From: an uncultured Chloroflexia bacterium
GTDB lineage: Bacteria > Chloroflexota > Limnocylindria > Limnocylindrales > CSP1-4
Reading direction: 5' to 3'
Length of the DNA: 64,000 bases
Assembly (NCBI GenBank): GCA_963713795.1
Contig: CAVQNC010000010.1
Span: 103,966-167,965 of the forward strand
Part shown: piece after piece, positions 30,128 through 46,347 of the stretch
Layout: each line of letters starts with the position of its first letter
How positions within the stretch are numbered: the stretch's first letter is position 1
The notes under the pieces: model-generated
What the model was told of the DNA's origin: nothing
Databases searched by the model: none
Seen by the model: only the letters and a program-made list of their open reading frames with translations
Made by a program: the position numbers and the translations under genes

Positions 30128-30836
30128 AACACCTCTCTCGGGCGAGCGAGTCGTGCCTGCCGGCGCGGGCGCGGCATCTGCCGGCGGTACCGCAGGCACG
30201 TCCGGGCGGTTGTCGCTGCCCATAGGGATCATCTCGAGGCCGCGCCTGGCGAGCCACGAACTGATGAACTCAGCCAGGGCCCGGTCGTCGTTGGCCAGAA
30301 CGGTGCGTGCCCTGTGTCGTGGGCGGCGAAGCCGCTCGTCCGTGCGACCACCTCACCTTTCAGCCGAGGAGCCGGCTCGTTGACCTGCCTTGAATGGTGC
30401 TTGCCCCACCCCATTACGTCAACCCCGGAGTCGGCCGGCGGACCGCGCAGCCGAGACGTGGCTCTCCCTAGTCGAGCGGGAGTCACATCCGGCCGCGAGG
30501 CCGGCAGGGGCGCGCTTTCGCGGGGCGGCTGTGCCCCAAGTGTTTTGAGAATGATTTGAGATTTGCGGCGGGTTGTCGGGAATAGAGTTCGGTCACAAGC
30601 GCCCGGGCCCACGCACTGGTAGGAGAAGTGGGTCACCCCAGGAGAGGAGGTATGGTCGCGGTACCTGGTAGCGGCGTGCGCCTGGCAGGCCGCACTCGGG
30701 TACTCGCACGGGGACCGGCTTCGGCATAGCTGGGTTCGCGACGCCGAGATTTACCAAACCATCGAATTCCGAATCCCATCTGGCGGATCCGCTACCCCGG
30801 TGGATTTCGCCGATGGGGCGCCAGGGAGATTTGAGA

Positions 30837-31601
30837 ATGGTCGAGAAAATGGTTGCCGAGATCTTCGGCACGGCGATTCTGGTCCTTCTGGGCGACGGCG
30901 TTGTAGCGGGTGTCCTGCTCTCGAAGTCGAAGGCCCAGAACTCGGGCTGGATCGTCATAACCATGGCATGGGCATTCGCCGTCTTCATGGGCGTGTGCGT
31001 GGCCGGACCGCTCAGCGGCGCCCACCTTAACCCGGCCGTGACGATCGGCCTTGCCACCTACGGGTCGCTCCAGTCGGGCGCCGGCATCACCTGGGACCAG
31101 GTCCCGCCGTACATTGCCGGTGAGATGATCGGTGCCATGATCGGCGCGATCCTTGTGGTCATCCACTACTGGGATCACTTCAAGGCCACCGAGGACAAGG
31201 GCCTCAAGCTGGCGGTCTTCAGCACGGCCCCGAACATCCGCAACCTGCCGCTCAACCTGGTCTCGGAGATCATCGGCACCTTCGTGCTCGTCTTCGTGAT
31301 CCTCTGCTTCGGCCAGCCCGGTTCCAAGGCCCCGGCGACCATGGGCGCGCTGCCCGTCGCCCTGCTGGTCCTGGTCATCGGCCTCTCGCTCGGCGGTACG
31401 ACCGGATATGCGATCAACCCCGCCCGCGACCTCGGCCCGCGCATCATCCACGCCATCCTGCCAATTCCTGGCAAGGGCGGTTCGGACTGGGAGTACTCGT
31501 GGGTTCCCGTCGTCGGTCCGCTGATCGGCGGCGCAATCGCGGCCATCGTCTACTACGCGGCCTTCACCCAGTTCATCGTCCTCAAGATTCCGGTTTCGTA
31601 A
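30837..31601 (+). CDS. glpF: Glycerol uptake facilitator (MIP/aquaporin family)
   Basis: Two NPA boxes (HLNPAVTIG and AINPARDLGPR); six TM helices; ATG 8 nt after AGGGAG. Confidence 0.9.
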   Translation: MVEKMVAEIFGTAILVLLGDGVVAGVLLSKSKAQNSGWIVITMAWAFAVFMGVCVAGPLSGAHLNPAVTIGLATYGSLQSGAGITWDQVPPYIAGEMIGAMIGAILVVIHYWDHFKATEDKGLKLAVFSTAPNIRNLPLNLVSEIIGTFVLVFVILCFGQPGSKAPATMGALPVALLVLVIGLSLGGTTGYAINPARDLGPRIIHAILPIPGKGGSDWEYSWVPVVGPLIGGAIAAIVYYAAFTQFIVLKIPVS

Positions 31602-31716: not shown

Positions 31717-32715
31717 ATGAAGAAGCTCATCAACGCGCCGGACCGCGTCGTGGACGAGGCGCTGGCCGGCATGGCAGCGGCTCACCCGGATCTGATCCGG
31801 GTCGAGGAGCCAAACATCATCGTCCGAAAGGATGCCCCCAAGCGCGGCAAGGTCGGCATCATCTCCGGCGGCGGGTCGGGCCACGAACCCATGCACGGCG
31901 GCTTTGTCGGCATGGGCATGCTCGATGCCGCCTGCCCGGGCGCTGTGTTCACGTCACCGGTTCCGGATCAGATGCAGGCCGCCACCAGGGCGGTCAACGG
32001 CGGCGCCGGTGTGCTGCACATCGTCAAGAACTACACGGGCGATATCATGAACTTCGACCTCGCGGCTCAACTGACCGAGGCCGAAGGGATCCCGGTGAAG
32101 GCGGTCGTCATCGCCGACGACGTAGCCGTAAAGGACTCGCTCTACACCGCTGGCCGGCGCGGTGTCGGCGGGACGGTGCTCGCCGAGAAGATCGTCGGCG
32201 GCGCGGCCGAGGCCGGCGCCGATCTGGACAAGGTGACGGCCTTGTGCCAGAGGGTCCAGGACAATGTCCGTTCCATGGGCATGGCCCTGACCAGTTGCAC
32301 CGTCCCGGCGGCGGGCAAGCCCACCTTCGAGCTCGCCGACGACGAGATGGAGATCGGCATCGGCATTCACGGCGAGCCTGGCCGGACCAGGATGAAGCTC
32401 GCCCCAGCGGACGACATCGTCGAAATGCTGATGGTGCCGATCCTCGAAGACCTTCCGTTCAAGTCGGGTGACAAGGTGCTCGCCTTCGTCAACGGCATGG
32501 GCGGAACGCCGCTTATCGAGTTGTACGTCGTGTACAACGCGGTCAACAAGATCCTCAAGGGCCGTGGGATCACGATCGCACGGAACCTCGTCGGGAGTTA
32601 CATCACGTCCCTGGAGATGGCCGGCTGCTCTATCAGCTTGCTCAGGCTCGACGACGAGATGACCCGCTTCTGGGATGCCCCGGTCCATACGCCGGGTCTT
32701 CGCTGGGGCGTGTGA
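31717..32715 (+). CDS. dhaK: Dihydroxyacetone kinase subunit DhaK (copy 1)
   Basis: GGGSGHEP motif and DhaK fold; ATG after GGAGGAAG. Confidence 0.9.
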
Positions 32716-33365
32716 CGTCGATGGACCAAACCGGCCGGTTGTCGTTCGATGATGTCCGTGGCTGGATCCGGCGCTTCGCGGCGCAGATCGTCGCCAACAA
32801 GAAGTACCTGACCGAGCTCGACTCGGCCATCGGCGACGCCGACCACGGCATCAACATGGATCGCGGCTTCCAGGCTGCGATTCCGAAGCTAGATGCCCTT
32901 ACGGGCGAGGATCCCGGCGCAGCCTGCAAGCTCGTCGGGTCGACGCTCATCTCCACGGTCGGCGGAGCCGGCGGGCCCCTCTACGGCTCGCTCTTCCTCC
33001 AGTTCGGCATCGCCTTGTCCGGCCACGACACGATCAGCCTGAACGAATGGCTGACCGGATTCGACCTGGGCATCGCTGCGATCCAGCGGCTTGGAAAGGC
33101 CGAGGCCGGCGACAAAACGATGCTCGATGCCCTCATGCCCGCCCGCGACGCCCTCAAACAGGCTCTCGCCGATGGAAAGAGTCCCAGAGAGGCTCTCCTC
33201 GGCGCGGCCTCGGCGGCCGAGGCGGGGATGATAGGCACCATCCCGATCGTGGCCCGCAGGGGCCGGGCGAGCTACCTGGGAGAGCGCAGCGCGGGCCATC
33301 AGGACCCGGGCGCGACCTCCTCGTACATGCTCGTCAAAGCCGCAGCGGACGAATGGGCGGCCTAG
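32712..33365 (+). CDS. dhaL: Dihydroxyacetone kinase subunit DhaL (copy 1)
   Basis: DGDHGINM ADP-binding motif; 4-nt overlap with dhaK. Confidence 0.85.
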
Positions 33366-33375
33366 ATCCGCGGTA

Positions 33376-34905
33376 GTGGATTCCGGTTTATCGAAAGAGG
33401 TGACTAGATTGGCTCAGTATGTAGGCGCCCTGGACCAGGGGACTACAAGCACCCGCTTCATGATCTTCGATCACTCCGGCGGCGTCGTCGGGATCGATCA
33501 GAAGGAGCATGAGCAGATCTACCCGAAGCCGGGTTGGGTCGAGCACGATCCGCTGGAGATCTGGACGCGCAGCGTCGAGGTCATCCGCGGCGCCCTGGCC
33601 AAGGCCGGCATCAAGGCCTCCGACCTGGCGGCGGTCGGCATCACCAACCAGCGCGAGACCACGGTGGTCTGGGATCGCAAGACGGGCAAGCCCGTCTACA
33701 ACGCGATCGTCTGGCAGGACACCCGGACCGACGTGATCATCAACGAGTTCGCCAAGGACGGCGGCCAGGATCGGCTCCGCGCCAAGGTCGGCCTGCCTCT
33801 GGCGACCTACTTCTCCGGCCCGAAGATCAAGTGGATCCTCGACAACGTCGCGGGTGCCCGTGCCAAGGCCGACGCCGGAGACCTCCTCTTCGGCAACATC
33901 GACACCTGGTGCATCTGGAACCTGACCGGCGGCGTCAGCGGCGGCGTGCACGTCACGGACGTGAGCAACGCCAGCCGCACGATGCTGATGAACCTCGAGA
34001 CCCTGGACTGGGATCCCGAGATTCTCAAGCTCATGGGCATCCCGCGGTCCATGCTGCCGGCCATCAAGGCCTCCAGCGAGGTCTACGGCAAGGGCGTCGG
34101 CGACCTCGCCGGCGTTCCGGTGGCCGGTGACCTGGGTGACCAGCAGGCGGCCCTCTTCGGCCAGACGTGCTTCTCCGCCGGCGAGGCGAAGAACACCTAC
34201 GGCACGGGCTGCTTCATGCTCCTGAACACGGGCACCAAGGCGGTCCCGTCCAAGAGCGGCCTGCTGACCACGCTCGGATACAAGATCGGCGACCAGCCCG
34301 CGGTCTACGCCCTTGAAGGCTCGATCGCGATCACCGGCGCCCTGGTCCAGTGGCTGCGCGACAACCTTGGCATGATCAAGACCTCGCCCGAGATCGAAGA
34401 GCTTGCCAAGACGGTCGACGACAATGGCGGCGTGTACTTCGTGCCGGCCTTCTCCGGCCTGTTCGCGCCGTACTGGAAGAGCGATGCGCGCGGCGTCATC
34501 GCCGGATTGACTCGCTACGTCAACAAGGGCCACATCGCCCGAGCAGTGCTCGAGGCGACGGCCTGGCAGACCCGCGAAGTGCTCGACGCGATGAACTCCG
34601 ACTCCGGCGTTCCGCTAACCGCACTCAAGGTCGACGGCGGCATGGTCTTCAACGACCTGCTCATGCAGTTCCAGGCCGACGTCCTGGGCGTGCCGGTCAT
34701 CCGGCCGAAGGTCGCAGAGACGACCGCCCTGGGCGCCGCCTACGCTGCCGGCCTCGCGGTCGGCTTCTGGAAGGCCGTCGAGGACCTGCGGGCGAACTGG
34801 CAGAAGGATCACGAGTGGAAGCCCAAGATGGATGCCACCACTCGTGAGAAGGACCTCAAGCTCTGGAAGAAGGCCGTGACCCGGACCTTCGACTGGGTCG
34901 AGTAG
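33376..34905 (+). CDS. glpK: Glycerol kinase
   Basis: [17 protein letters not shown]-terminal motif, FGGY-family length. The true start may be the TTG at about 33409 (LAQYVGAL). Confidence 0.9.
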
Positions 34906-34917
34906 GGTCTCCACCAA

Positions 34918-34946
34918 TCCGGCGGCCGGCTTGCCCGGCCGCCGGA
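34918..34946 (+). terminator. Perfect 12-bp stem hairpin (TCCGGCGGCCGG-cttgc-CCGGCCGCCGGA) between glpK and the glpA-like gene
   Basis: Read directly from the sequence. No U-tract; may act as a terminator/attenuator or RNA processing site. Confidence 0.4.
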
Positions 34947-34979
34947 TAACAATGTTCGAACATCGCATCTGGCAGAACA

Positions 34980-36167
34980 ATGGATAGACAGTCAGGCGCA
35001 CCAAGGGTCGTCATCATCGGCGGCGGTGGCACGGGGGGAGCCCTCGCCCACGATCTGACTCTGCGCGGGGTCCGCGTGACCCTCGTCGAGCGCGGCGAAA
35101 TCACTTCGGGGACGACGGGCCGGCACCACGGCCTGCTCCACTGCGGCGCCCGGTACGCGGTCAAGGACCGCGAGTCCGCCGTTGAGTGCATTGAAGAGAA
35201 CACCATCCTGCGGAGGATCGCGCCGGGCTCGTTCGAGCTCAACGACGGGCTCTTCGTCGCGGTCACCGATGCCGAGGCGGATTACGAGAAGGTCTTCTTC
35301 GAGTCGTGCCAGGCCGCCGAGATTCCCGTCAGGAGAGTGGACCGGGCCGGGGCGCTGCGCCTCGAGCCCAGGCTGAACCCGGAGCTCCGGTGCGCCGTCC
35401 AGGTCCCCGACGGCACCATGGACGCGATGCGCATGCCGCTCCGGTTCTTCGCCACCGCCAAGCGCAACGGCGCCGATATCCGGCCGTTCAGCGAGGTCGT
35501 CGGGCTGACCATGACGGACGCGGCGTCGCCGCGCGCGGTCACCGGGGTGGCCGTGAAGGACCTCACGTCCGGCCGCACGTACGAGATCGGCGCGGACCTG
35601 GTGGTCAACGCGGGCGGGCCGTGGGCGGGCAAGGTGGCCGGAATGGCCGGTGTGGACGTGCCGATCCAGCCCTCGCCGGGGATCCTGGTCGCGGTCCGCG
35701 GCCGCTACTGCAACATGGTCGTCAACCGGCTCCACGCCTCCGGCGACGGCGACATCGTGGTGCCCCAGCGCGAGCTCTCAGTGATCGGAACGAGCTCGTG
35801 GGTCACCGACGATCCGGACCACCTGACCGTCCCATCCGACCACGTGGAGATGATGTTCCGCGAGGGATCGATGATGATCCCGTCGATCCGCACGGCCGAG
35901 ATTCGGGCGACCTGGTCCGCCGCCCGGCCGCTCATCGGCGAGCGCGGCGCCTCCACCGGCCGCGAGCTTTCGCGCACTTTCAAATGCTTCGACCACGCGG
36001 CCGACGACGGCGTCGAGGGCTTCGTGACCATCTCGGGAGGCAAGGCGACGACGCTGCGGGCGATGGCGGAGGCGACGGCCAACGTCGTGTGCCGCAAGCT
36101 CGGCGTCGACCGGCCGTGCATGACCCGCGAGGTCGTGCTGCTGCCCCACACGGAGTACTACGCATGA
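34980..36167 (+). CDS. glpA: Glycerol-3-phosphate dehydrogenase flavoprotein, GlpA-type but truncated (about 395 aa, lacks the C-terminal BFD-like domain)
   Basis: N-terminus VVIIGGGGTGGALAHDLTLRGVRVTLVERGEITSGTTGRHHGLLHCGARYAVKDRESAVECIEEN is collinear with the E. coli GlpA N-terminus as recalled. Confidence 0.8.
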   Translation: MDRQSGAPRVVIIGGGGTGGALAHDLTLRGVRVTLVERGEITSGTTGRHHGLLHCGARYAVKDRESAVECIEENTILRRIAPGSFELNDGLFVAVTDAEADYEKVFFESCQAAEIPVRRVDRAGALRLEPRLNPELRCAVQVPDGTMDAMRMPLRFFATAKRNGADIRPFSEVVGLTMTDAASPRAVTGVAVKDLTSGRTYEIGADLVVNAGGPWAGKVAGMAGVDVPIQPSPGILVAVRGRYCNMVVNRLHASGDGDIVVPQRELSVIGTSSWVTDDPDHLTVPSDHVEMMFREGSMMIPSIRTAEIRATWSAARPLIGERGASTGRELSRTFKCFDHAADDGVEGFVTISGGKATTLRAMAEATANVVCRKLGVDRPCMTREVVLLPHTEYYA

Positions 36168-36955
36168 GCGCCCAGGAGTCTCCGGTGACCGAAGGGGCTC
36201 AGGCCCCCGTCGATACCCACGCCACCTCGGGAACCGGCCGCCACGTCCGCTTCCGCGTCTCCCGTTTCAAGCAGGGCGACCAGCAGCCGCACCTCCAGGA
36301 CTACGACGTGGAGATTGCGCCGGCGACCACGGTCCTGGACGCCCTGACGGCGATCCGCCGCGACCAGGACCCGACGCTGCTCCTGCGCCATTCCTGCTTC
36401 CACGCGTCCTGCGGCACCTGCGGCATGCGCGTCAACGACAAGGAAGAGCTGGCCTGCGTCACGGCCGTCAGCGACCTCGACTGCGACACGGTCAAGGTGG
36501 AGCCGATCGCGAACCAGCGACTCGTTTCGGACCTGGTCACGGACATGGTCGACTTCTACGATCGGTTCCGGGCGATCGGCCGGCCGCTCATCCGCCAGAG
36601 TGAGGTCTACCCGGACTCGGAGGTCGCGCCGGGAGTCGAGGAGCACCGCCGCTACGAGAGCTGCATCGAATGCGGGCTCTGCCTGTCGGCCTGCCCGATC
36701 GTAGCCAGCGACGGCCGCTACCTCGGCCCGGCGGCGCTCGCGGCGGCCCAGCGTACCGTCGCCGAGCCGCGCGGTGGCGACAGCTTCTCCGTCCTGCGCC
36801 TGACCGACGACGCCCAGGCGGCCTGGCGCTGCCACCTGTCGTTCGAGTGCTCGGAGGCCTGCCCGTCCAACGTGGATCCGGCCGGCGCCATCATGTTCAT
36901 CCGCCGCAAGCTGGCAGGCCAGCGCGTCAACTCGATCTTCGGGAGGCGGTCATGA
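36164..36955 (+). CDS. Succinate dehydrogenase/fumarate reductase-type iron-sulfur subunit (SdhB-like: 2Fe-2S plus two 4Fe-4S-type motifs)
   Basis: ATGA overlap with the glpA stop. CFHASCGTCGMRVN...C plant-ferredoxin motif; CIECGLCLSACP; CHLSFECSEACP. The 5' 286 codons of track ORF 35306..36955 are a frame artefact. Confidence 0.75.
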   Translation: MSAQESPVTEGAQAPVDTHATSGTGRHVRFRVSRFKQGDQQPHLQDYDVEIAPATTVLDALTAIRRDQDPTLLLRHSCFHASCGTCGMRVNDKEELACVTAVSDLDCDTVKVEPIANQRLVSDLVTDMVDFYDRFRAIGRPLIRQSEVYPDSEVAPGVEEHRRYESCIECGLCLSACPIVASDGRYLGPAALAAAQRTVAEPRGGDSFSVLRLTDDAQAAWRCHLSFECSEACPSNVDPAGAIMFIRRKLAGQRVNSIFGRRS

Positions 36956-37353
36956 CCGTAAGGGAAGATAGGGCAAGCCCCCGGCGCCGCGGCGTCTACG
37001 GCTGGGTCGACCCGCGGGGTCGCCGGCTGGGTCACTGGGCCTTCATCCTCAACCGCCTGACCGGTCTGGGCATCCTTCTGTACCTGGGCCTGCATCTGGT
37101 CGTGCTGTCGATGCTGGCCACCGGCCCGAATGCCTGGGACAACTTCGTCTCCCTCGCCCTGACGCCCGTCTTCCTGTCCCTGGACGTGATCCTGATCTTC
37201 GGCCTGCTGCTCCACGGGCTCAACGGCATCCGCGTGACGCTTGTCGGCTTCGGCCTGGTGGTCGATCGCCAGAAGGCCCTCTTCGTGTCGCTGATGGTGA
37301 TAGGAGCCATCATCCTGGTCGTGGCGTCGCTCCACATTTTCGAGGTGGGGTAA
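36952..37353 (+). CDS. SdhC-like membrane anchor/cytochrome b subunit
   Basis: ATGA overlap with the FeS gene; 133 aa, three TM helices with His residues (HWAF, LHLV, LLHGLNG). Confidence 0.65.
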   Translation: MTVREDRASPRRRGVYGWVDPRGRRLGHWAFILNRLTGLGILLYLGLHLVVLSMLATGPNAWDNFVSLALTPVFLSLDVILIFGLLLHGLNGIRVTLVGFGLVVDRQKALFVSLMVIGAIILVVASLHIFEVG

Positions 37354-37356
37354 GCG

Positions 37357-37791
37357 ATGTCTGAGCCAATCTCCGGCCACTCCAAAGCGACCGATCAGCC
37401 GGTCGATCACGATGTCGAGCGCTCGACCTGGACGCCTTCGAACGAGTCCGGGAAGCCGGCCTGGGGCTGGATCCTGCAGGCGGTCACCGGCGTGCTGGTG
37501 CTGTTCCTTCTGACCTTCCACATGATCGCCAACCATTTCATGGTGACCAAGGGCCTGCGCGACGCCGCCTCCGTGGCCCAGTGGTTCTCGAACCCGCTCG
37601 TCGTCGTCCTGGAGGTAACCTTTCTGGTGATGGTGACGTGGCACGGGCTGCTCGGCCTGCGCGCGATCATCTTCGACTTCGGCTTCAGCCCGAAGACGGA
37701 GCGCCGGATTACCTGGACCCTGACAGTGGTTGGCACAGTGGCGGTCGTCTATGGAATCTGGCTTACGTCGGTGATCGTCTCCCGGGGTTGA
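37357..37791 (+). CDS. SdhD-like hydrophobic membrane anchor subunit
   Basis: 144 aa, three TM helices (FHMIANHFMV, WHGLLGLRAI); follows the SdhC-like gene after 3 nt. Confidence 0.6.
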   Translation: MSEPISGHSKATDQPVDHDVERSTWTPSNESGKPAWGWILQAVTGVLVLFLLTFHMIANHFMVTKGLRDAASVAQWFSNPLVVVLEVTFLVMVTWHGLLGLRAIIFDFGFSPKTERRITWTLTVVGTVAVVYGIWLTSVIVSRG

Positions 37792-37812: not shown

Positions 37813-40425
37813 GTGGCGGATGCGACCGGGCCGCTGGTAGGGATAGTCGTCGTCTCACACTCGGCGCGGATCGCCGAGGGTGTCGTCGAGCTGGCCCGGC
37901 AGATGGCCGGCCCGGACGTGCCTCTCGTTGCCGCCGGAGGCATGGCCGACGGCGCCATCGGAACCGATGCGGTTCTCATAGCGGAGGCGATCGCCCGGGC
38001 CGACGTTGGTGGCGGCGTGCTCGTTCTGGCCGACCTCGGCAGCGCGGTCCTGAGCACGAAACTGGCCCTGGACATGGCCGATCCGGAACTGGCCGCCCGG
38101 ACTCGCCTGAGCAACGGGCCGATCGTCGAAGGCGCGGTCGTGGCCGCGGTCCGAGCCAGGGGCGGCGCGACGGTCGACGAGGTTCTGCGCGAGGCGGAGG
38201 CCGCTGCCTCGGTGGTCAAGGACTCTGGTGACGAGGCTGCCGACGTCTTCGGTGCGGCCGGCCCCGGGCCGAGCCTGGCGGCCGGAGCGGCCGGGACGAG
38301 CGGCGGCGTGGCCGGTGCGGCCGGCGGGCCCAGCACGTTCACCCTCGAGGTCTCGAACCCGTCCGGCCTGCATGCCCGGCCGGCGGCGGAGTTCGTCGCC
38401 ACCGCCGCACGGTTCCGATCCGCGATCCGGCTCGAGAACCTGACTCGGGGCACGTCACCGGCCGACGCCAGGAGCCCGACGGCGATCATGTCGAGCGGAG
38501 TGGCCCAGGGCCACGCGATCCGCGTGTCGGCTGAGGGAGAGGACCAGGACGCGGCGCTTGCGGCGCTCCTGTCGCTCGCCGCTGGCGGCTTCGGCGAGGG
38601 CAAGGCGGCCGCCACCCGACCCGGGCCGGCCGCGGCTCGGCCGGCGGCCGAATTGCCGCTCCTGGCGCCCCGCCCGCGCCTGGCCGGGGCCATCGCCGGG
38701 ACGCCGGGCGCAGCCGGCGTGGCCGTCGGGCCGGTGTGGGTCTACGCCTCGCGGCCGCCGTCCGATGCCGCCGCTCACGGGGCCGGGGCGACTTACGATC
38801 CCGGCGCGGCAGTCCGTTCGGCGGCCGCCGAAGCCACCGCCCAGCTCAACGCGCTGGCGGCACGGGTGCGGCGGCATGGTCGAGACGAGGACGCCGGCAT
38901 CTTCCGAGCCCAGGCCATGATTGCCTCCGACCCGCAGCTCCTGGACGATGCCGTGGCGCGGGCGGCCGCGGGCGAGGACCCGGGCAGGGCCGTGGAGTCG
39001 GCCGCGGCGATGGCCGCGGAACGCATGGAGGCCCTGCCGGACGCGCTCCTGGCGGCCCGTGGGGCCGACTTCCGCGACGTGGGGGCCAGGATCGCCCGGA
39101 TCGTTCGAGGTGAGTCGCTGACCCTGCCGGCCGTGCCTTCCATCGCGGTCGCCGAGGACCTGCCGCCCTCCGTCGCGGAGGAGCTGCCGGAAGATCTCCT
39201 GCTCGGAGTGGCGATCCAGGGCGGCTCGGCCACGGCGCACGTCGTAATCCTGTCCCGCGGCCGGGGGATCCCGGCCGTAGTGGCGGTGCCCGGACTCCTC
39301 GAAGCGGCGGCGAAGGCGTCGGCCATCGCCATCGACGGCGAGTCGGGCGAAGTGGTCCTCGATCCGGACGCGGCCGCGCTGGCCGAGCTGGCGGCTCGCG
39401 CCGAGGCCTTGGCCGAGCGCCGCCGCGCCGCGGCCGCGCTTCGCGGCGACAAGGGAGCCACTGCCGACGGGCAGCCCGTTGCGCTGCTGGCGAACATCGG
39501 CGGCCCTGATGATGCCGGCCGCGCCATCGAAGCCGGAGCCGAGGGCGTGGGCCTGTTTCGAACCGAGTTCCTGTTCATGAAGCGCCGGACGGCTCCGACC
39601 GAGGACGACCAGGTCGAGCCGTATCGGCGCGTCTTCGAAGCCTTCGGGCGCGATCGCCCGGTCGTCGTCCGCCTGGCGGACATCGGCGGCGACAAGGACC
39701 TGCCTTACCTGGGCTTGCCGCACGAGGAGAACCCGTTCCTCGGAGTCCGGGCGATCCGCCTGGCCGAGGGTTCGCGCGAGCTGCTCGCCGCCCAGCTGCG
39801 GGCGATCTGGCGGGCCGCCGGGCTGGCCGGCGTGGTGCCGCACGTCATGGCGCCGATGGTCTCCACGCTGGAGGACGCCCGTCTCCTGGTCGAGCTGCGC
39901 GACGAAGCCCGGGCGGTGGTGGCGGCCGGGGGCGCGCCCCTGCCCGAGCGCATGGTCACCGGAATCATGGTCGAGGTCCCGTCCGCGGCGATCCTGGCTC
40001 CGGAGCTCGCGCGGCTGGTCGATTTCTTCTCGATCGGCACGAACGACCTGACCCAGTACACGCTGGCGGCGGATCGCTCGAACCCGGCTCTGGCCCACTT
40101 CCAGGATGCCCTCCATCCCGCTGTTCTACGCCTCATCGCCGGCGTGGTCGCCGGGGCCGACGAGGCCGGCATCCCGGTCGCGGTCTGCGGGGAACTGGCC
40201 GGCGATCCGATCGGGGCCCTCGTGCTGGTCGGCCTGGGTGTCGACGAACTCTCCGCGGACGCCGGCTCGCTCGATGACGTGCGGGCGGCGCTCGCGGGCG
40301 TGACGCGCGCTCAGCTGGCCGATCTTGCGCAGGACGCCCTCAAGGCGGCCGATGCCGCGGCGGTCAGGGCCATGGCCCGCGAGCTCCTGCGGCCGCTCGC
40401 AGCGGGGCCCGGGCGCACGCCGTGA
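37813..40425 (+). CDS. dhaM: Multiphosphoryl transfer protein: DhaM-type EIIA(Man)-like domain, HPr domain and full Enzyme I (PEP-protein phosphotransferase)
   Basis: N-terminus VGIVVVSHSARIAEGVVELARQM matches the DhaM N-terminus. HPr GLHARPAAEFV. EI phospho-His region GGSATAHVVILSRGRGIPAVV and PEP-utilizing signature FFSIGTNDLTQYTLA. 870 aa. Confidence 0.85.
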   Translation: MADATGPLVGIVVVSHSARIAEGVVELARQMAGPDVPLVAAGGMADGAIGTDAVLIAEAIARADVGGGVLVLADLGSAVLSTKLALDMADPELAARTRLSNGPIVEGAVVAAVRARGGATVDEVLREAEAAASVVKDSGDEAADVFGAAGPGPSLAAGAAGTSGGVAGAAGGPSTFTLEVSNPSGLHARPAAEFVATAARFRSAIRLENLTRGTSPADARSPTAIMSSGVAQGHAIRVSAEGEDQDAALAALLSLAAGGFGEGKAAATRPGPAAARPAAELPLLAPRPRLAGAIAGTPGAAGVAVGPVWVYASRPPSDAAAHGAGATYDPGAAVRSAAAEATAQLNALAARVRRHGRDEDAGIFRAQAMIASDPQLLDDAVARAAAGEDPGRAVESAAAMAAERMEALPDALLAARGADFRDVGARIARIVRGESLTLPAVPSIAVAEDLPPSVAEELPEDLLLGVAIQGGSATAHVVILSRGRGIPAVVAVPGLLEAAAKASAIAIDGESGEVVLDPDAAALAELAARAEALAERRRAAAALRGDKGATADGQPVALLANIGGPDDAGRAIEAGAEGVGLFRTEFLFMKRRTAPTEDDQVEPYRRVFEAFGRDRPVVVRLADIGGDKDLPYLGLPHEENPFLGVRAIRLAEGSRELLAAQLRAIWRAAGLAGVVPHVMAPMVSTLEDARLLVELRDEARAVVAAGGAPLPERMVTGIMVEVPSAAILAPELARLVDFFSIGTNDLTQYTLAADRSNPALAHFQDALHPAVLRLIAGVVAGADEAGIPVAVCGELAGDPIGALVLVGLGVDELSADAGSLDDVRAALAGVTRAQLADLAQDALKAADAAAVRAMARELLRPLAAGPGRTP

Positions 40426-41432
40426 GAATGGCGAGCCTGGGCAGGTCCGGCCTCCCCGTCAGCGAGATCGGGCTGGGCCTGGCCGCGATCGGCCGGCCGG
40501 GCTATATCAACCTCGGACGCGACCGCGACCTCGGCGCCGATCGCAGCGTCGAGGTCATGCGGAGCAGAGCCCACCACGTGCTCGACGCCGCCTACGCCGG
40601 CGGCGTGCGTTACTTCGACGCCGCGCGCTCGTACGGCCTGGCCGAGGACTTCCTGGCCTCGTGGCTGGACGCACGCGCCCTCGGGCCCGCCGACGTGACC
40701 GTGGGCTCCAAGTGGGGCTACCGCTACACGGCCGACTGGCAGGTCGGGGCGAGCGTCAACGAGATCAAGGACCACTCCGTCGCGAACCTGCGGCGCCAGG
40801 CGGCCGAGAGCCGCGGGCTGCTGGGAGACCGGCTGCGCCTCTACCAGATCCACTCCGCCACTCTCGAGAGCGGCGTGCTCGACGACGCCGAGGTGCTGGC
40901 CGAGCTGAGCTCGCTGGCCGGGGCCGGCCTGGCGGTCGGGCTGTCGGTGAGCGGTCCGCGGCAGTCGGACGTGATCCGTCGCGCGCTCGAGGTCCGGGTC
41001 GACGGCCGCCCGCTCTTTGCCTCCGTCCAGGCGACCTGGAACCTGCTCGAGCCGTCGGCCGGACCCGCGCTGGCCGAGGCCAGGGAGGCGGGCTGGGGAG
41101 TGATCGTCAAGGAAGCGCTGGCGAACGGCCGCCTGGCCACGCCGGCGGCGCCGGCGGCCCTCGCGGCGCCGGGTTCGCCGGGCCGGCCCGCTCCGCTCGA
41201 GAACGTGGCCGGGCGCCTCCGCTGCGCCGCCGACGCCGTGTCCATCGCCGCCGCGCTGGCTCAGCCGTGGTCCGACGTAGTCCTGTCGGGAGCGGTCAGC
41301 CCTGAACAGCTCACCAGCAACCTTGCCGCGGTCGACGTGCGGATCTCGCCCGACGACCTGGCCGAACTCGGGTCCATGGCCGAGCCGCCGGCATCGTACT
41401 GGGCGACGCGAGCCTCGCTGGCCTGGGCCTGA
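40422..41432 (+). CDS. Aldo/keto reductase
   Basis: 336 aa; AKR (alpha/beta)8 barrel features; ATGA overlap with the dhaM fusion gene. Confidence 0.7.
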   Translation: MRMASLGRSGLPVSEIGLGLAAIGRPGYINLGRDRDLGADRSVEVMRSRAHHVLDAAYAGGVRYFDAARSYGLAEDFLASWLDARALGPADVTVGSKWGYRYTADWQVGASVNEIKDHSVANLRRQAAESRGLLGDRLRLYQIHSATLESGVLDDAEVLAELSSLAGAGLAVGLSVSGPRQSDVIRRALEVRVDGRPLFASVQATWNLLEPSAGPALAEAREAGWGVIVKEALANGRLATPAAPAALAAPGSPGRPAPLENVAGRLRCAADAVSIAAALAQPWSDVVLSGAVSPEQLTSNLAAVDVRISPDDLAELGSMAEPPASYWATRASLAWA

Positions 41433-41459
41433 CTGCCCAGGGACTCCCGGCACGGAGAG

Positions 41460-41710
41460 GGTGAGGGCGGCCGCGCCGCCCGCCCGCGCGGCCCCGCGCC
41501 GCCCGCCCGCGCGGCCCCGCGCCGCCCGCGCGCCGAGTCGGCCGCCTGCGTCCTTCGCCGCCTGCCTGCACCCCGCGTCGCCCACCGCGAGCTGTGCAGC
41601 CGCCCGCGACCTGTGCCGCCCGCGCGCCGCCCAGCGTGTCGCGCCCGCCCCGAGCTGTCCCGCCCCGAGCTGTCCCGCTCGCGCCCGAGCTGTCCCGCCC
41701 GCCCTGAGCC
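41460..41710. repeat. GC-rich degenerate tandem repeats in an intergenic region (23-nt unit GCCGCCCGCCCGCGCGGCCCCGC x2 plus partial copy; 14-15-nt unit CCCGAGCTGTCCCGC x3)
   Basis: Read directly from the sequence between the AKR stop and the SorC-family regulator start. Confidence 0.6.
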
Positions 41711-41841
41711 GATTCCTCTTGGGGATCGACGACAACTCATGACCCGCACCGTGAATCAGCCGGCTCCGGCGGGACCCGCTCTGGTAACATTGGGCACACG
41801 CTCACCACTGAGCAAATGATCGGGCCGCCTGGGGTTGGCAG

Positions 41842-42906
41842 TTGGAAGAGAACGCCGGCCAGAGCCTGTACGAATTCCTGGCGCGCATCGCCCATCGTTA
41901 CTACGTCGACGATCGGACGCAGGAGGAGATCGCGCGCGAATTCGCTCTGTCGCGGGCGAAGGTCCAGCGGCTCCTCGTCCAGGCGCGCGAGGCGGGCGTG
42001 GTCGAGATCAGGATCCAGGCCCCGCCGTGGCTCCACCTGGAGCTCGAGGACGAGTTCGCCGCCGAGTTCCGTCTGACCGACGTGATCGTCAGCACGTCGC
42101 GGCCGGACCCGCAATCGCAGCGCGAGGCGGTGGCCCGGAGCGCGGCCCAGTACCTTGAGCGGCGCCTCGGCAAAGGAGCGATCGTGGCGGTGGGCCACGG
42201 GCGCGACACCGGCGAGGTGCCGCGTTTCTTCCGGCCGGGCCGCCGGCTCGATTGCACGTTCGTCAGCGCCATGGGCGGGTCGCCGCGGGTCGATGCCCCA
42301 ACCAACCCCAACGAGATCTGCCGCGCCCTGGCGCAACAGTGCGGCGGCCGGGCCGAGAGTCTCTACGCCCCGGCCTACGTCGAGAGCGAGGAGATGCGCG
42401 ATGGGCTGCTCCAGCAGGAGGCGATCTCGCACACCCTGCGGCTTGCCGCACAGGCGAGCGTCGCCCTCGTCGGCATTGGCGGCACGAACGAGAACTGCAC
42501 GATGGTCCGCAGCGGCTGTCTCTCCACCGACGAGATAGGCCGGCTCGTGGGCCAGGGGGCCGTCGGCGACGTGCTCGGGAACTACATGGATGTCGATGGT
42601 CGGTTGATCGCGGCGCCCCACCGGGACCGGCTGGTGGCCCTGTCCGTAGACGAGCTGCGCCGTATCGAGACCGTCGTCGCGGTCGTGAGCGAGGCCGAGA
42701 AGCCGCTCGCGATCCTCGGCGTCCTGCGAGCGGGAGTCATCGATGTCCTGATCGTCGACGAAGCCAACGCCAGGGCCGTGCTGGACCTGGTGCGCCGCGG
42801 CCGTGATTCGGGCGACCCGGCCGGCAGCGAAGAGGTTCCGGCGGGCAAGAAGGCGACAGCCCGGGCTGCCCGGGACAAAGGAGTGATCGGCTCGACGAAG
42901 GATTGA
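41842..42906 (+). CDS. SorC/DeoR-family sugar-binding transcriptional regulator
   Basis: TTG start. N-terminal HTH LYEFLARIAHRYYVDDRTQEEIAREFALSRAKVQRLL, then a sugar-phosphate-binding CggR/SorC-type domain. Confidence 0.75.
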   Translation: MEENAGQSLYEFLARIAHRYYVDDRTQEEIAREFALSRAKVQRLLVQAREAGVVEIRIQAPPWLHLELEDEFAAEFRLTDVIVSTSRPDPQSQREAVARSAAQYLERRLGKGAIVAVGHGRDTGEVPRFFRPGRRLDCTFVSAMGGSPRVDAPTNPNEICRALAQQCGGRAESLYAPAYVESEEMRDGLLQQEAISHTLRLAAQASVALVGIGGTNENCTMVRSGCLSTDEIGRLVGQGAVGDVLGNYMDVDGRLIAAPHRDRLVALSVDELRRIETVVAVVSEAEKPLAILGVLRAGVIDVLIVDEANARAVLDLVRRGRDSGDPAGSEEVPAGKKATARAARDKGVIGSTKD

Positions 42907-43016
42907 ACAGCCGCGGAGCGGTGGCGTAACCAGTTCGGCCGCGAGCCCGGAGGGCTCTGGCCGATGGCCGGAGTAGGCGTAAGCCGGACAGCGAAGCGTC
43001 CCAAGGAGGTGCTGGA

Positions 43017-43871
43017 GTGCCGATCGTATCGACAAAAGAGATCCTCAACAGGGCATTTGCCGAACGCTACGGGGTCGCGGCGATCAACGTCATCAACGAC
43101 CTGACGATGGAGGCCGTCCTGGCCGCGGCGGAGGAACTGAAAGCCCCCGTCATCCTCCAGACCTCGGTCAAGCACGTGAAGATGACCGGGCTGGACGCCA
43201 TGTACGCGATGTGGGTGGAGTACACCAAGCACGTCTCCGTCCCGGTCGCCCTCCACCTGGACCATTGCCCGGAGCGCGACGTCATCAGCGCCTGCCTCGC
43301 GAAGGGCTGGAACTCGGTCCTCTTCGACGCCAGCAAGCTTTCGGTCGAGGAGAACAAGCGCCAGTGCGCCGAGGTCGTCGCCGAGGCCCGCCGCTACGGC
43401 GCCGACGTCGAGGGCGAGATCGAGGGCTTCAAGCGGACCGAGGAGATGACCGGCGACGAGGCCGAGCACGTCCAGAGCCTCGAGACCGTCATCGACTTCG
43501 TCCACGCCACCGGCGTCGACGTCTTCGCGCCGGCGATCGGCAACGCCCACGGCATGTACAAGACGACGCCGCACCTCGACAGCCAGCGGGTAACCGACAT
43601 CGTCGAGGCAACCGGGATTCCGGTGGCGCTCCACGGCGGCACCGGCATGACCCCGGAGCAGTTCAGCGACCTGATCTCCCGCGGTTGCGCCAAAGTCAAC
43701 ATCTCCACCGCGCTCAAGATCGCCTTCATGAAGTCGGGCTACGACTTCATGACCGAACACCCGGGCGACTACGACCCGCCCAAGATCTTCACCGCCCAGC
43801 GCGCCGCGGTGATGGAAATGGCCAAGTACCACATCCGGCTGTTCGGCAGCGAAGGCAAGGCCTGGAAATGA
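43017..43871 (+). CDS. Class II ketose-bisphosphate aldolase (FbaA/GatY/KbaY family)
   Basis: GTG after AAGGAGG. Collinear with E. coli GatY as recalled ([30 protein letters not shown]). Confidence 0.85.
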
Positions 43872-44641
43872 ACGCGCTGGTCTTCGACTGCGACGGCGTC
43901 CTGGCCGACACCGAGCGGTACGGACACCTGCCGTCGTTCAACCAGACGTTCCGCGAGTTCGGACTCCCTCTCGAGTGGTCGGAGGAGGAGTACGGGCGAA
44001 AGCTGCTCATCGGCGGCGGCAAGGAGCGCATGTCGAGCGAACTGACGCCCGACTTCGTTCGGGCCAACCGCCTGCCCTCCGACCCCGAAGCTCTGGCGGC
44101 AGAGGTCGCCAAGTGGCACAAGCGCAAGACTGCCCTCTATACGGAGATGGTCGCCGCCGGCAAGCTGCCGCCGCGGCCGGGCATCCGGCGGGTGATCTCC
44201 GACGCGCAGGACGCGGGCTGGAAGCTGGCGGTGGCGTCCACGTCAGCCGAGGCGTCGGTCCACGCCATCCTCGAGTTCGCGGTCGGCAAGGAGCGCGCCG
44301 ACCTCTTCGACGTCTTCCTGGCCGGCGACTGCGTTCCCAAGAAGAAGCCGGCTCCGGACATCTATCTCCTCGCGCTCGAGAAGCTCGGCGTCGACCCCGC
44401 CGAGGTGCTCGTCGTGGAGGACTCTCGCAACGGGCTCGAGGCGGCCTACGCCGCGGGCCTGCGCTGCCTGGTAACGGTCAACGGCTACACCGAGAAGGAG
44501 GACTTCAGCGAGGCAATCCTCGTGGTTTCGTCCCTTGGTGATCCGGATGGGGAGCAGACGACAGTCATCGCCAACCGCTCGGCCGCGCGGCCGGGTGCGT
44601 ACGTGACCCTCGCCGACCTGGAGGCCTGCCTCGCCCCGTAA
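43868..44641 (+). CDS. HAD-IA family hydrolase (phosphatase/phosphomutase-like)
   Basis: DxD motif FDCDGVLAD at the N-terminus; ATGA overlap with the aldolase gene. The 5' part of track ORF 43211..44641 is a frame artefact. Confidence 0.75.
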
Positions 44642-44683
44642 CTCCGCCCGGCAACCCACCGAAGCAAGGAGAAGGAGGTCCAT

Positions 44684-45355
44684 ATGGCTAAGGCGTCGTT
44701 CGACGACGTCGACCTCGTGCTCAAGACGATGGCCACCACGATCGTCGACAACGCGGAGTACTTCGCCCAACTCGACTCGATCGTCGGGGACGGCGACTTC
44801 GGCTTCTCGTTGCGCAACGGATTCGAGGTCGTGGTCGCCGACTACGACACGTTCGACAAGTCGAGCGTGGGAGCCGTGCTCAAGAAGATCGGCCTCACCC
44901 TCGCCGGCAAGGTCGGCGGAGTTTCCGGCCCCATCTGGGGTACGGCTTTCCTCCGGGCCGGCGTTGCGGCCGGCGATCGGACCGAACTGGCGCCCGAAGA
45001 CCTGATCGCGATGTTGCGTGCCGCGATCACGGGAATCATGGCCCGCGGCGGCGCATCGCTGGGCGAGAAGACCCTGCTCGACGCCCTTGTTCCGGCAACC
45101 AATTCCATGGAGGCGGCGATCGGCGACCCGGCGATGCAAGGCGACCACGGCGTCAAGGCGATCCAGAGTGCCGCTGACGTGGCGGTCAAGGCGGCGGAAG
45201 ACACCAAGTCCATGCTGGCGATGCGCGGTCGGGCCGCGTACACCGGCGAGCGGAGCATCGGCTCCGTCGATGCCGGCGCGACGGCGATCGGCGTAATCCT
45301 CCAGGCCATCGCGTCGGCGTGGCGCGAAAAGTACGGAAAGGAAGCACAGGCGTGA
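44684..45355 (+). CDS. dhaL: Dihydroxyacetone kinase subunit DhaL (copy 2, divergent)
   Basis: DhaL fold with variant nucleotide motif DGDFGFSL; 223 aa. Confidence 0.75.
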   Translation: MAKASFDDVDLVLKTMATTIVDNAEYFAQLDSIVGDGDFGFSLRNGFEVVVADYDTFDKSSVGAVLKKIGLTLAGKVGGVSGPIWGTAFLRAGVAAGDRTELAPEDLIAMLRAAITGIMARGGASLGEKTLLDALVPATNSMEAAIGDPAMQGDHGVKAIQSAADVAVKAAEDTKSMLAMRGRAAYTGERSIGSVDAGATAIGVILQAIASAWREKYGKEAQA

Positions 45356-46347
45356 GGAAGTTCCTGAACGACCCGAAGAAGTTCGTGCCCGAGTTCCTCG
45401 AGGGCATCGCGCTCGCGAGCGGCGGCACGCTCAAGTACGAGCCGAAGTACAACCTGATCTACCGGGCCGACATGCCCAAGAAGGATCGGGTCTCGATCAT
45501 CCAGGGTTCCGGGTCCGGCCACGAGCCGGCGCACACCATGATCGTCGGCCCCGGCATGCTCGACGCGGCATGCCCGGGCGACGTCTTCGCCGGCCCGCCC
45601 GTTGAGTTCGTCACCGAGACGTCCAAGCTGATGGACACCCCGGCCGGCGTGCTCTACATCGTCAACAACTACACGGGCGACCGCACCGCCTGGGAGATGG
45701 CCAAGGAGCTCTGCGAGGCCGAGGGCCAGAAGATCGGCTATCTGCTCGTCAACGACGACGTGGCGGTCAAGGACTCCACCTGGACGATCGGCCGGCGCGG
45801 CGTGGCCGGCAACTTCTTCGTGATCAAGGCCGTCGGCGCCAAGGCCGACAAGGGCGGCTCGCTCGAGGAGTGCGTCAAGGTCGGCGAGAAGGTCATCAGC
45901 CGCGTCCGGACGATGGGTATCGCCCTGTCGTCCTGCACGCCGCCGGTCCGCGGCACGCCGCTCTTCGAGATCGCCGACGGCGAGATGGAAGTCGGCATCG
46001 GCATCCACGGCGAGCCGGGTCGCGAGCGGCGCAAGATGGGCACGGCCGACGAGATCGTCGACGTGCTCCTCGGCGCCATCGTCCCCGACCTGCCGTTCAA
46101 GGCAGGCGACGAGGTCGCGCTGATGGTCAACGGCCTCGGCGGGACCCCGATCAGCGAGCTCTACCTGCTCTACGGCATTGCCCACAAGAAGCTGGCCGCG
46201 CAGGGCATCAAGGTCTTCCGCAGCTACGTCGGCGAGTACTGCACCTCGCTCGAGATGGCGGGCGCGCACATCTCGATGCTCAAGGTGGACGACGAGCTCA
46301 AGGAACTGCTCCTCGCCCCGGCGGAGGTCGCCGTCCGGGTCTTCTAG
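45352..46347 (+). CDS. dhaK: Dihydroxyacetone/ketose kinase subunit DhaK (copy 2)
   Basis: GTG 45352 overlapping the dhaL2 stop (GTGA), preceded by GGAAAGGAAG; GSGSGHEP motif. Confidence 0.8.
   Translation: MRKFLNDPKKFVPEFLEGIALASGGTLKYEPKYNLIYRADMPKKDRVSIIQGSGSGHEPAHTMIVGPGMLDAACPGDVFAGPPVEFVTETSKLMDTPAGVLYIVNNYTGDRTAWEMAKELCEAEGQKIGYLLVNDDVAVKDSTWTIGRRGVAGNFFVIKAVGAKADKGGSLEECVKVGEKVISRVRTMGIALSSCTPPVRGTPLFEIADGEMEVGIGIHGEPGRERRKMGTADEIVDVLLGAIVPDLPFKAGDEVALMVNGLGGTPISELYLLYGIAHKKLAAQGIKVFRSYVGEYCTSLEMAGAHISMLKVDDELKELLLAPAEVAVRVF

Follow-up and report, generated by a model that had tools for sequence, protein, structure and literature searches.

A short GlpA-type flavoprotein encoded with an SdhB-type iron-sulfur subunit and two SdhC/SdhD-type anchors in a glycerol operon of Chloroflexota: a predicted glycerol-3-phosphate:menaquinone oxidoreductase

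The stretch of DNA considered here (64 kb of contig CAVQNC010000010.1, from an uncultured Chloroflexia bacterium; hereafter the window, G+C ~68%) contains at 34980-37791 four consecutive genes, all on the + strand: (i) a short GlpA-type FAD flavoprotein of 395 aa (34980..36167), proposed to be the catalytic subunit oxidising glycerol-3-phosphate (G3P); (ii) an iron-sulfur (FeS) subunit of the SdhB/FrdB family, 263 aa (36164..36955); (iii) an SdhC-like membrane anchor, Anc1, 133 aa (36952..37353); (iv) an SdhD-like membrane anchor, Anc2, 144 aa (37357..37791). Stop and start codons overlap as ATGA at the flavoprotein/FeS and FeS/Anc1 junctions, and the spacer between Anc1 and Anc2 is 3 nt. An earlier sequence-only reading of this locus had delimited the same open reading frames, which were recovered exactly, had described them as translationally coupled, which agrees with the two overlaps and the 3-nt gap, and had proposed that they encode a four-subunit G3P:quinone oxidoreductase.

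The best NCBIfam match of the flavoprotein is TIGR03377 (GlpA), with an E-value of 4.6e-129 and 431.4 bits; the equivalog cutoff of 552.8 is not reached. The score against PRK11101 (365.2 bits) is likewise below its cutoff of 425. It must be noticed that the TIGR03377 match spans only positions 2-380 of the 530 of the profile: the GlpA score is under the cutoff because the C-terminal domain is missing. In Pfam, DAO is matched at 1.2e-44 over residues 9-357 and FAD_binding_2 only weakly (36 bits). The protein is 42% identical to Escherichia coli GlpA over residues 1-390 and its end, at residue 395, falls just before the Cys-rich C-terminal BFD-like [2Fe-2S] domain of the E. coli protein; when this domain was sought with Pfam, no Fer2_BFD match was obtained in the flavoprotein. 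The description of a GlpA-like protein devoid of the BFD-like domain, given in the sequence-only reading, thus holds.

The identity with GlpD is lower (26%). R58, Y59, R316 and K355 of the flavoprotein align with R54, Y55, R317 and K354 of GlpD, respectively, which we take to be the residues binding the G3P substrate or its phosphate. Among 26 diverse short GlpAs, conservation at these four positions is complete or at least 90%, and G14, G16 and G19 of the GxGxxG dinucleotide-binding motif are invariant. The AlphaFold2 (AF2) model of the flavoprotein (predicted local distance difference test, pLDDT, of 84; predicted template-modelling score, pTM, of 0.85) has its best PDB matches with GlpD and GlpO (TM-score of 0.78-0.85, normalised to the query); other structures of the DAO family are matched too, and neither SdhA nor FrdA was found in the structural top 50. 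An identity as SdhA or L-aspartate oxidase was considered and rejected, i.e., 431 bits for GlpA versus 36 bits for FAD_binding_2, folds of the GlpD/GlpO type and no SdhA/FrdA structural match. Neither a signal peptide nor a transmembrane or hydrophobic segment was found in the flavoprotein by hydropathy analysis. It starts directly with the dinucleotide-binding motif and is therefore predicted to be cytoplasmic.

With 190.9 bits for a cutoff of 88, the FeS subunit is a clear member of the broad dhsB model TIGR00384, and it matches the Pfam domains Fer2_3 (1.3e-26, 93 bits) and Fer4_8 (2.4e-11, 44 bits). It is under the cutoff in every SdhB/FrdB model of equivalog level. Its best solved relatives are SdhB/FrdB chains, with E-values from 7e-39 to 1e-30. 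Three sets of cysteines (C78/C83/C86/C98, C167/C170/C173/C177 and C223/C229/C233) align with the cysteine motifs of E. coli SdhB and are presumed to be, in this order, the ligands of [2Fe-2S], [4Fe-4S] and [3Fe-4S] clusters. All 11 cysteines are kept in 77-79 of 79 homologues, and the subunit may be described, as it had been in the sequence-only reading, as SdhB/FrdB-like with 2Fe-2S and 4Fe-4S motifs. An identity as GlpC was rejected, since the GlpC models give only 18-28 bits for cutoffs near 280. No hydrophobic segment was seen in the hydropathy profile of this subunit.

One histidine of the FeS subunit deserves a separate mention. H224, which follows the first [3Fe-4S] cysteine in a «WRCH» motif, aligns with His207 of E. 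coli SdhB, a residue that we assume to belong to the proximal quinone site. H224 is found in 46 of 48 loci bearing anchor genes vs. 2 of 31 anchor-less loci; the FeS subunit therefore co-varies with its membrane partner. The position of Trp164 of E. coli SdhB (the Trp of the proximal quinone site) is not conserved in the FeS subunit.

Both anchors exceed the gathering score of Pfam Sdh_cyt (3e-12 for Anc1 and 3e-16 for Anc2), and three hydrophobic segments, i.e., three predicted helices, are present in each of them. The best solved relatives are chain C of 6LUM for Anc1 (SdhC of Mycobacterium smegmatis Sdh2, E-value of 2.3e-12) and chain D of 6LUM for Anc2 (SdhD of the same complex). In 6LUM, heme bP is liganded by His D107 and His C87 and heme bD by His D65 and His C47 (PMC7447783). 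In HMMER alignments, H48 and H88 of Anc1 correspond to His C47 and His C87, and H55 and H96 of Anc2 to His D65 and His D107. The ligands proposed from these alignments are thus Anc1 H88 and Anc2 H96 for the proximal heme bP, and Anc1 H48 and Anc2 H55 for the distal heme bD. H48 and H88 of Anc1 are invariant in 47 of 47 homologues, together with R35, N91 and R94; H55 and H96 of Anc2 are invariant in 48 of 48, together with H60. The Sdh_cyt matches, the three helices of each subunit and the four aligned histidines therefore give the anchor pair the defining sequence features of a type-A complex-II anchor (two subunits, two hemes), a class typical of menaquinone (MK) users. Two small SdhC/SdhD-like anchors with conserved histidines had been claimed from the sequence, and profile searches place the FeS subunit and the anchors in the SdhB/FrdB and SdhC/D families, not with GlpC or GlpB. 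Neither of the two outcomes named in the sequence-only reading as refuting it (GlpC/GlpB homology of these subunits, or an SdhA/L-aspartate oxidase flavoprotein) was observed.

H60 of Anc2 is a fifth histidine, located five residues past H55 on the side of the outer end of helix 1; M. smegmatis SdhD does not have it. It may be part of a distal quinone or proton site. H60 and H224 of the FeS subunit are candidate quinone-site residues.

The absence of GlpB and GlpC downstream of the flavoprotein gene, claimed in the sequence-only reading, was confirmed by phmmer: no homologue of GlpB, GlpC or SdhA was obtained in the 64-kb window, the sole trace of GlpB/GlpC being a 14.9-bit match of ferredoxin motifs to the FeS subunit.

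Related loci were obtained by a profile search with a 9-sequence alignment of the flavoprotein in one genome per GTDB species. The search gave 590 loci, a count which is not the size of the family, as the search pattern also matches canonical GlpA; the best 80 of them were analysed by six-frame phmmer. The closest homologues of the flavoprotein (97-79% identity) come from soil metagenomes and from metagenome-assembled genomes (MAGs) of «Candidatus Limnocylindrales», and ENA soil-metagenome contigs encode a protein with 100% identity to the FeS subunit; these matches point to an uncultured, Limnocylindria-like member of the Chloroflexota as the host. Two of the 80 loci are uninformative as regards gene order (the contig ends too early). 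In all the others, i.e., 78 of 78, an SdhB-like gene directly follows the short glpA gene, 77 times as a separate gene and once as an in-frame fusion. SdhC/D-like anchor genes come next in 47 of the 80 loci, which belong to Chloroflexota, many Actinomycetota and one MAG labelled Planctomycetaceae. The co-occurrence of this gene order in other genomes, which the earlier reading had put forward as a check, is thus established for the glpA-sdhB adjacency and, in those 47 loci, for the anchors. No GlpB, GlpC or SdhA homologue adjoins the short glpA gene in the 80 related loci, and no SdhA homologue is present in any of the 80 fetched loci. Among deeper relatives, one with 42% flavoprotein identity still has SdhB, SdhC and SdhD, and another (43%) has the order glpK-glpA-sdhB with no anchors.

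In a neighbour-joining (NJ) tree of GlpAs, computed with our own distance and NJ code and indicative only, the SdhB-linked GlpAs group without exception in a single clade. Outside this clade are E. coli GlpA, the four glpBC-linked GlpAs and 66 of the 68 long representatives. Ten short representatives of ~430 aa form a run just outside it; organism names or look-ups are available for five of these, and archaeal proteins are among them. In all three cases checked (Pyrofollis, a Thermoprotei MAG and a Nitrososphaerota MAG), a CoxG gene lies beside or near glpA, as in the type known from Sulfolobus acidocaldarius.

In five cases (L050, L060, L065, L074 and L078), canonical glpA/glpB/glpC genes share their locus with a short-glpA/sdhB module. 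GlpABC and the short-glpA/sdhB module therefore coexist, with no replacement of the one by the other.

The subunits also occur as natural fusions. In Cellulomonas sp. T2.31MG-18 (L023), GlpA and SdhB are encoded in one reading frame. A search with the L023 protein gave 31 clusters of in-frame GlpA-SdhB fusions (570-752 aa, mostly 664-752 aa), carrying DAO, Fer2_3 and Fer4 domains; with 31 independent fusion clusters, the idea that the L023 fusion is a sequencing artefact was rejected. Five cultured isolates have such fusions: Cellulomonas sp. SG140, Cellulomonas sp. P24, Pengzhenrongella phosphoraccumulans, Isoptericola sp. b490 and Actinotalea sp. M2MS4P-6. In both fusion loci that were checked, two Sdh_cyt genes come after the fusion gene. 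The existence of natural GlpA-SdhB fusions therefore supports one physical complex.

The fusion genes located in Cellulomonadaceae and related isolates are L023:6947-9052, L090:7001-9067 and L091:7001-9049. In these three, the linker between GlpA and SdhB is ~50 aa long and rich in T, A and G. In the same genomes the fusion unit is beside neither glpK nor glpF.

Other arrangements were seen in the set. In 25 loci, mostly from Desulfobacterota and Spirochaetota, with some Chloroflexota, the SdhB-like gene is followed by at least 1.5 kb of sequence with no detectable anchor gene. Anchor-less glpA-sdhB pairs are found at L057-L083 (e.g., L081:6956-8993, L063:6917-8786 and L080:6995-8837), with unrelated genes on the 3' side; the FeS subunits of loci of this type are devoid of the «WRCH» histidine. 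In FeS subunits of (Nitrati)desulfovibrio, ~40-50 additional aa are inserted behind the CP of the second Cys motif. In the Solirubrobacteraceae locus L024 (8169-9773), the FeS subunit is fused to a C-terminal CCG domain (of the HdrB/GlpC type), in place of anchors, a layout that resembles TfrB or type-E complex II; L019:8193-9908 (Solirubrobacterales) is probably the same fusion. In the anchor-less Chloroflexota locus L020 (9016-10200), a ketopantoate-reductase-like protein of ~394 aa (ApbA/ApbA_C) comes after the SdhB-like gene; a protein of ~394 aa occupies the same place in L033 (8987-10168), its likeness to the L020 protein having been judged by eye alone.

The four genes of the window are embedded in a glycerol operon, the order being glpF-dhaK-dhaL-glpK-[four genes]-dhaM/HPr/EI, all on the + strand. 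The cluster starts with a gene for a glycerol facilitator of the GlpF type (30813..31601; Pfam MIP, 1.2e-45). It is followed by the dihydroxyacetone kinase subunits DhaK and DhaL (31717..33365; Dak1 4e-136, Dak2 1.4e-51), which provide in the same cluster a second route to dihydroxyacetone phosphate (DHAP). Glycerol kinase GlpK (33376..34905; FGGY_N 3.3e-76, FGGY_C 2.4e-50) is encoded immediately 5' of the short glpA gene and is proposed to supply sn-glycerol-3-phosphate, the proposed substrate. Of the 80 related loci, 50 have a GlpK homologue inside the flank retrieved, usually directly 5' of the short glpA gene. Directly 3' of the anchor genes, a gene at 37813..40425 encodes a DhaM-like fusion of 870 aa, made of EIIA-man, PTS-HPr, PEP-utilisers_N, PEP-utilizers and PEP-utilizers_C domains (i.e., EIIA-man, HPr and a full Enzyme I); it is proposed to be the phosphoryl donor for DhaKL. 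In many related loci this slot is likewise occupied, and the order glpF-dhaK-dhaL-glpK-glpA-sdhB-sdhC-sdhD-dhaM is identical in an Ardenticatenaceae MAG (70% identity).

Further 3' are an aldo-keto reductase, a SorC-type sugar-binding regulator, a class-II fructose-bisphosphate aldolase and a second DhaL/DhaK pair. The last three occupy 41842-46347, the pair having L before K, the reverse of the first one; two dihydroxyacetone kinase sets are thus present in the locus. G+C rises to 0.74-0.75 at 38001-42000, vs. ~0.68 in the flanks, over the Enzyme I fusion and the aldo-keto reductase gene. The genes glpK and glpA are separated by 74 nt, which contain a perfect 13-bp G+C-rich hairpin (34917..34947, + strand), with no T-run. 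The 86-nt stretch around it (34900-34985) has a minimum free energy of -36.8 kcal/mol (z = -3.2), and none of 200 shuffled sequences is as stable. The hairpin was not called as an intrinsic terminator, the T-run being absent; it may be a processing element, a stability element or a partial terminator.

From what is observed, i.e., the genes present, the families to which they belong, the conserved ligands and adjacency and the natural fusions, we infer that the four genes most probably encode one membrane-bound respiratory sn-glycerol-3-phosphate:menaquinone oxidoreductase. The four-subunit enzyme on a complex-II chassis that had been proposed from the sequence is thus supported by the adjacency, the fusions, the conserved ligands and the glpF/glpK operon. 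The mechanism would be as follows. Glycerol would enter through GlpF and be phosphorylated by GlpK; the short GlpA, in the cytoplasm, would then oxidise G3P, the presumed substrate, to DHAP at its non-covalent FAD. Having lost the BFD-type 2Fe-2S domain, the short GlpA would dock on the SdhB-type subunit instead. Electrons would pass through the presumed [2Fe-2S], [4Fe-4S] and [3Fe-4S] clusters of that subunit, in this order, and next into the type-A two-subunit anchor, where a proximal and a distal heme b are predicted. Menaquinone, the likely acceptor, would be reduced at the anchor, at a proximal or a distal site. The potentials are about -190 mV for DHAP/G3P and about -74 mV for MK, the reaction from G3P to MK being therefore exergonic. 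Unlike the reduction of MK by succinate, it needs no input of proton-motive force.

Several points weigh against this interpretation: (i) the GlpA score of the flavoprotein is below the NCBIfam equivalog cutoff, and the substrate specificity is deduced; (ii) the full-text literature contains synteny inference for this family and no biochemical, genetic or structural evidence; (iii) the search for SdhA covered the 64-kb window, and a canonical sdhA may lie elsewhere in the genome; (iv) anchor genes are not detected in the 25 loci mentioned above; (v) many loci (Cellulomonadaceae, Desulfobacterota, Spirochaetota) have no glpK beside the module; (vi) a deep relative with 43% identity, P0153, has no SdhB; (vii) the NJ tree carries no support values; (viii) the AF2 model of the fusion P0432, built on a 73-row alignment, has a pTM of 0.59 with a poorly predicted 4Fe-4S half, and this model gives no computational support to a docking geometry of the flavoprotein on the FeS subunit. 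From points (iv) and (vi) it follows that the anchor is not obligatory for the family.

Three other explanations have to be weighed, which together take up a minor part of the probability. The one which survives best, improbable as it is, accepts the complex and changes its chemistry: the substrate would be another 2-hydroxy acid, a polyol phosphate or an amine, or the enzyme would work in reverse as a quinol-dependent DHAP reductase. Enzymes of the DAO family differ widely in substrate, glycerol genes are missing from the neighbourhood of many related loci, and a score of 431 bits for an equivalog cutoff of 552.8 leaves some room for another substrate. However, the low score comes from the missing C-terminal domain, the identity of 42% with E. 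coli GlpA extends across the whole catalytic region, the residues aligned with the phosphate/substrate site of GlpD are conserved, and glpK is in the flank both in the window and in 50 of the 80 loci, usually directly 5' of glpA. As to the reverse direction, it would be endergonic from menaquinol according to textbook potentials.

Slightly less probable still is a soluble or peripheral two-subunit enzyme, made of the flavoprotein and the FeS subunit and using another acceptor, the anchors being dispensable or heme-free scaffolds. The 25 loci in which a glpA-sdhB pair is followed by at least 1.5 kb free of SdhC/D-like genes, and the L024 subunit fused to a CCG domain instead, are in line with such an enzyme. 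On the contrary, anchors are present in the window's own clade, Anc1 is translationally coupled to the FeS gene, the four heme-ligand histidines are invariant and the «WRCH» histidine co-varies with the presence of anchors. These four facts suggest that forms devoid of anchors represent a distinct variant rather than the ground state of the locus.

Finally, it is very improbable that the sdhB/C/D-like genes serve an ordinary succinate:quinone reductase or fumarate reductase with a distant SdhA, next by coincidence to a short GlpA working alone as a GlpD-like monotopic enzyme: the FeS subunit does pass the broad dhsB model, the anchors do resemble type-A SdhC/D of M. smegmatis Sdh2, the short GlpA of Sulfolobus acidocaldarius is active and reduces quinones with no FeS partner (PMC11962113), and the view is confined to 64 kb of the genome, but against this stand the adjacency, which holds in several phyla and in 78 of 78 informative loci, the coupling by ATGA overlaps, the 31 clusters of in-frame fusions, the lack of an SdhA homologue in the 80 fetched loci and in the window, and an FeS subunit below every SdhB/FrdB equivalog cutoff.

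Beyond this locus, it is likely, though somewhat less so than the four-subunit enzyme itself, that a large and mainly bacterial family of respiratory G3P dehydrogenases re-uses a complete complex-II FeS/di-heme module with a flavoprotein unrelated to SdhA, and that it exists as separate subunits, GlpA-SdhB fusions, an FeS-CCG fusion and anchor-less pairs. If true, this would be a third major route, beside GlpD and GlpABC, by which electrons from G3P reach the quinone pool, and it appears to be the main such route in soil Chloroflexota and many Actinomycetota. Automatic annotation of the subunits includes the label «FAD-dependent oxidoreductase»; as the subunits are mis-annotated in databases, reconstructions from MAGs can miscount complex II and miss glycerol respiration. 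The complex-II FeS/heme module would moreover be portable between unrelated flavoproteins, and the family would clearly document the use of the complex-II electron wire by another dehydrogenase. In the di-heme anchor, the uphill reduction of menaquinone by succinate is normally driven by the proton-motive force, whereas here a low-potential donor would make the reaction downhill; if so, the alternatives are an electroneutral, a force-dissipating or an energy-conserving enzyme. The prediction can be tested directly, since carriers are available in culture (Cellulomonas sp. P24, Pengzhenrongella phosphoraccumulans, Thermanaerothrix solaris and Nitratidesulfovibrio spp.).

The arrangement is not unprecedented, an archaeal synteny description having preceded this one. 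In Thermofilum-related archaea (T. pendens), glpA is followed by putative sdhB, sdhC and sdhD genes, described as «GlpA-SdhBCD» on synteny only (Fig. 9b, Commun Biol 2025, PMC11962113), the partners being proposed for electron transfer and membrane anchoring; the bacterial canonical glpA is said there to co-occur consistently with glpB and glpC (PMC11962113). A full-text literature search for the architecture returned only that paper and its preprint. The likeness to Thermofilum is one of gene content only, i.e., a short glpA followed by sdhB-, sdhC- and sdhD-like genes, an order found in 47 related bacterial loci; the present case differs in being bacterial (Chloroflexota). The archaeal short GlpAs that could be placed, among which the Thermofilum proteins are not, are CoxG-linked and outside the SdhB-linked clade. 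The idea is thus already in print, and the function is predictable within a glycerol operon; what is new here is the bacterial breadth, the di-heme type-A nature of the anchors, the natural fusions and the anchor-less and CCG-fused variants.

Compared with E. coli GlpABC, the catalytic flavoprotein is homologous (42% over ~390 residues) and the overall reaction, from G3P to quinone, would be the same. The system of the window is nevertheless not GlpABC, because it has no BFD-like domain, no GlpB and no GlpC (which has two 4Fe-4S clusters and CCG domains); these partners are replaced by an SdhB-type three-cluster subunit and two integral anchors predicted to bind heme b. Nor is it complex II, because it has no SdhA. 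With M. smegmatis Sdh2 (6LUM) it shares the SdhB cluster motifs, the two three-helix anchors, the four histidines aligned on the bP/bD ligands and, as the likely acceptor, menaquinone. It differs from Sdh2 by a flavoprotein of the DAO/GlpA fold instead of SdhA/FrdA and by an inferred substrate which is G3P instead of succinate or fumarate; an equivalent of SdhF was not identified.

GlpD (E. coli, 2QCU) and GlpO are the closest solved folds and share the residues aligned with the substrate site. Unlike the protein of the window, GlpD is monotopic, has ~500 aa and a C-terminal domain of its own, and reduces quinone directly with no FeS or heme partner. The characterised GlpA-CoxG of S. acidocaldarius (PMC11962113) is similar in that a short GlpA devoid of the BFD domain is associated with a membrane partner other than GlpBC. 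In that archaeon the partner is a small CoxG-like anchor free of redox cofactors, whereas the short GlpA of the window is predicted to be connected to the membrane by a full FeS/heme wire.

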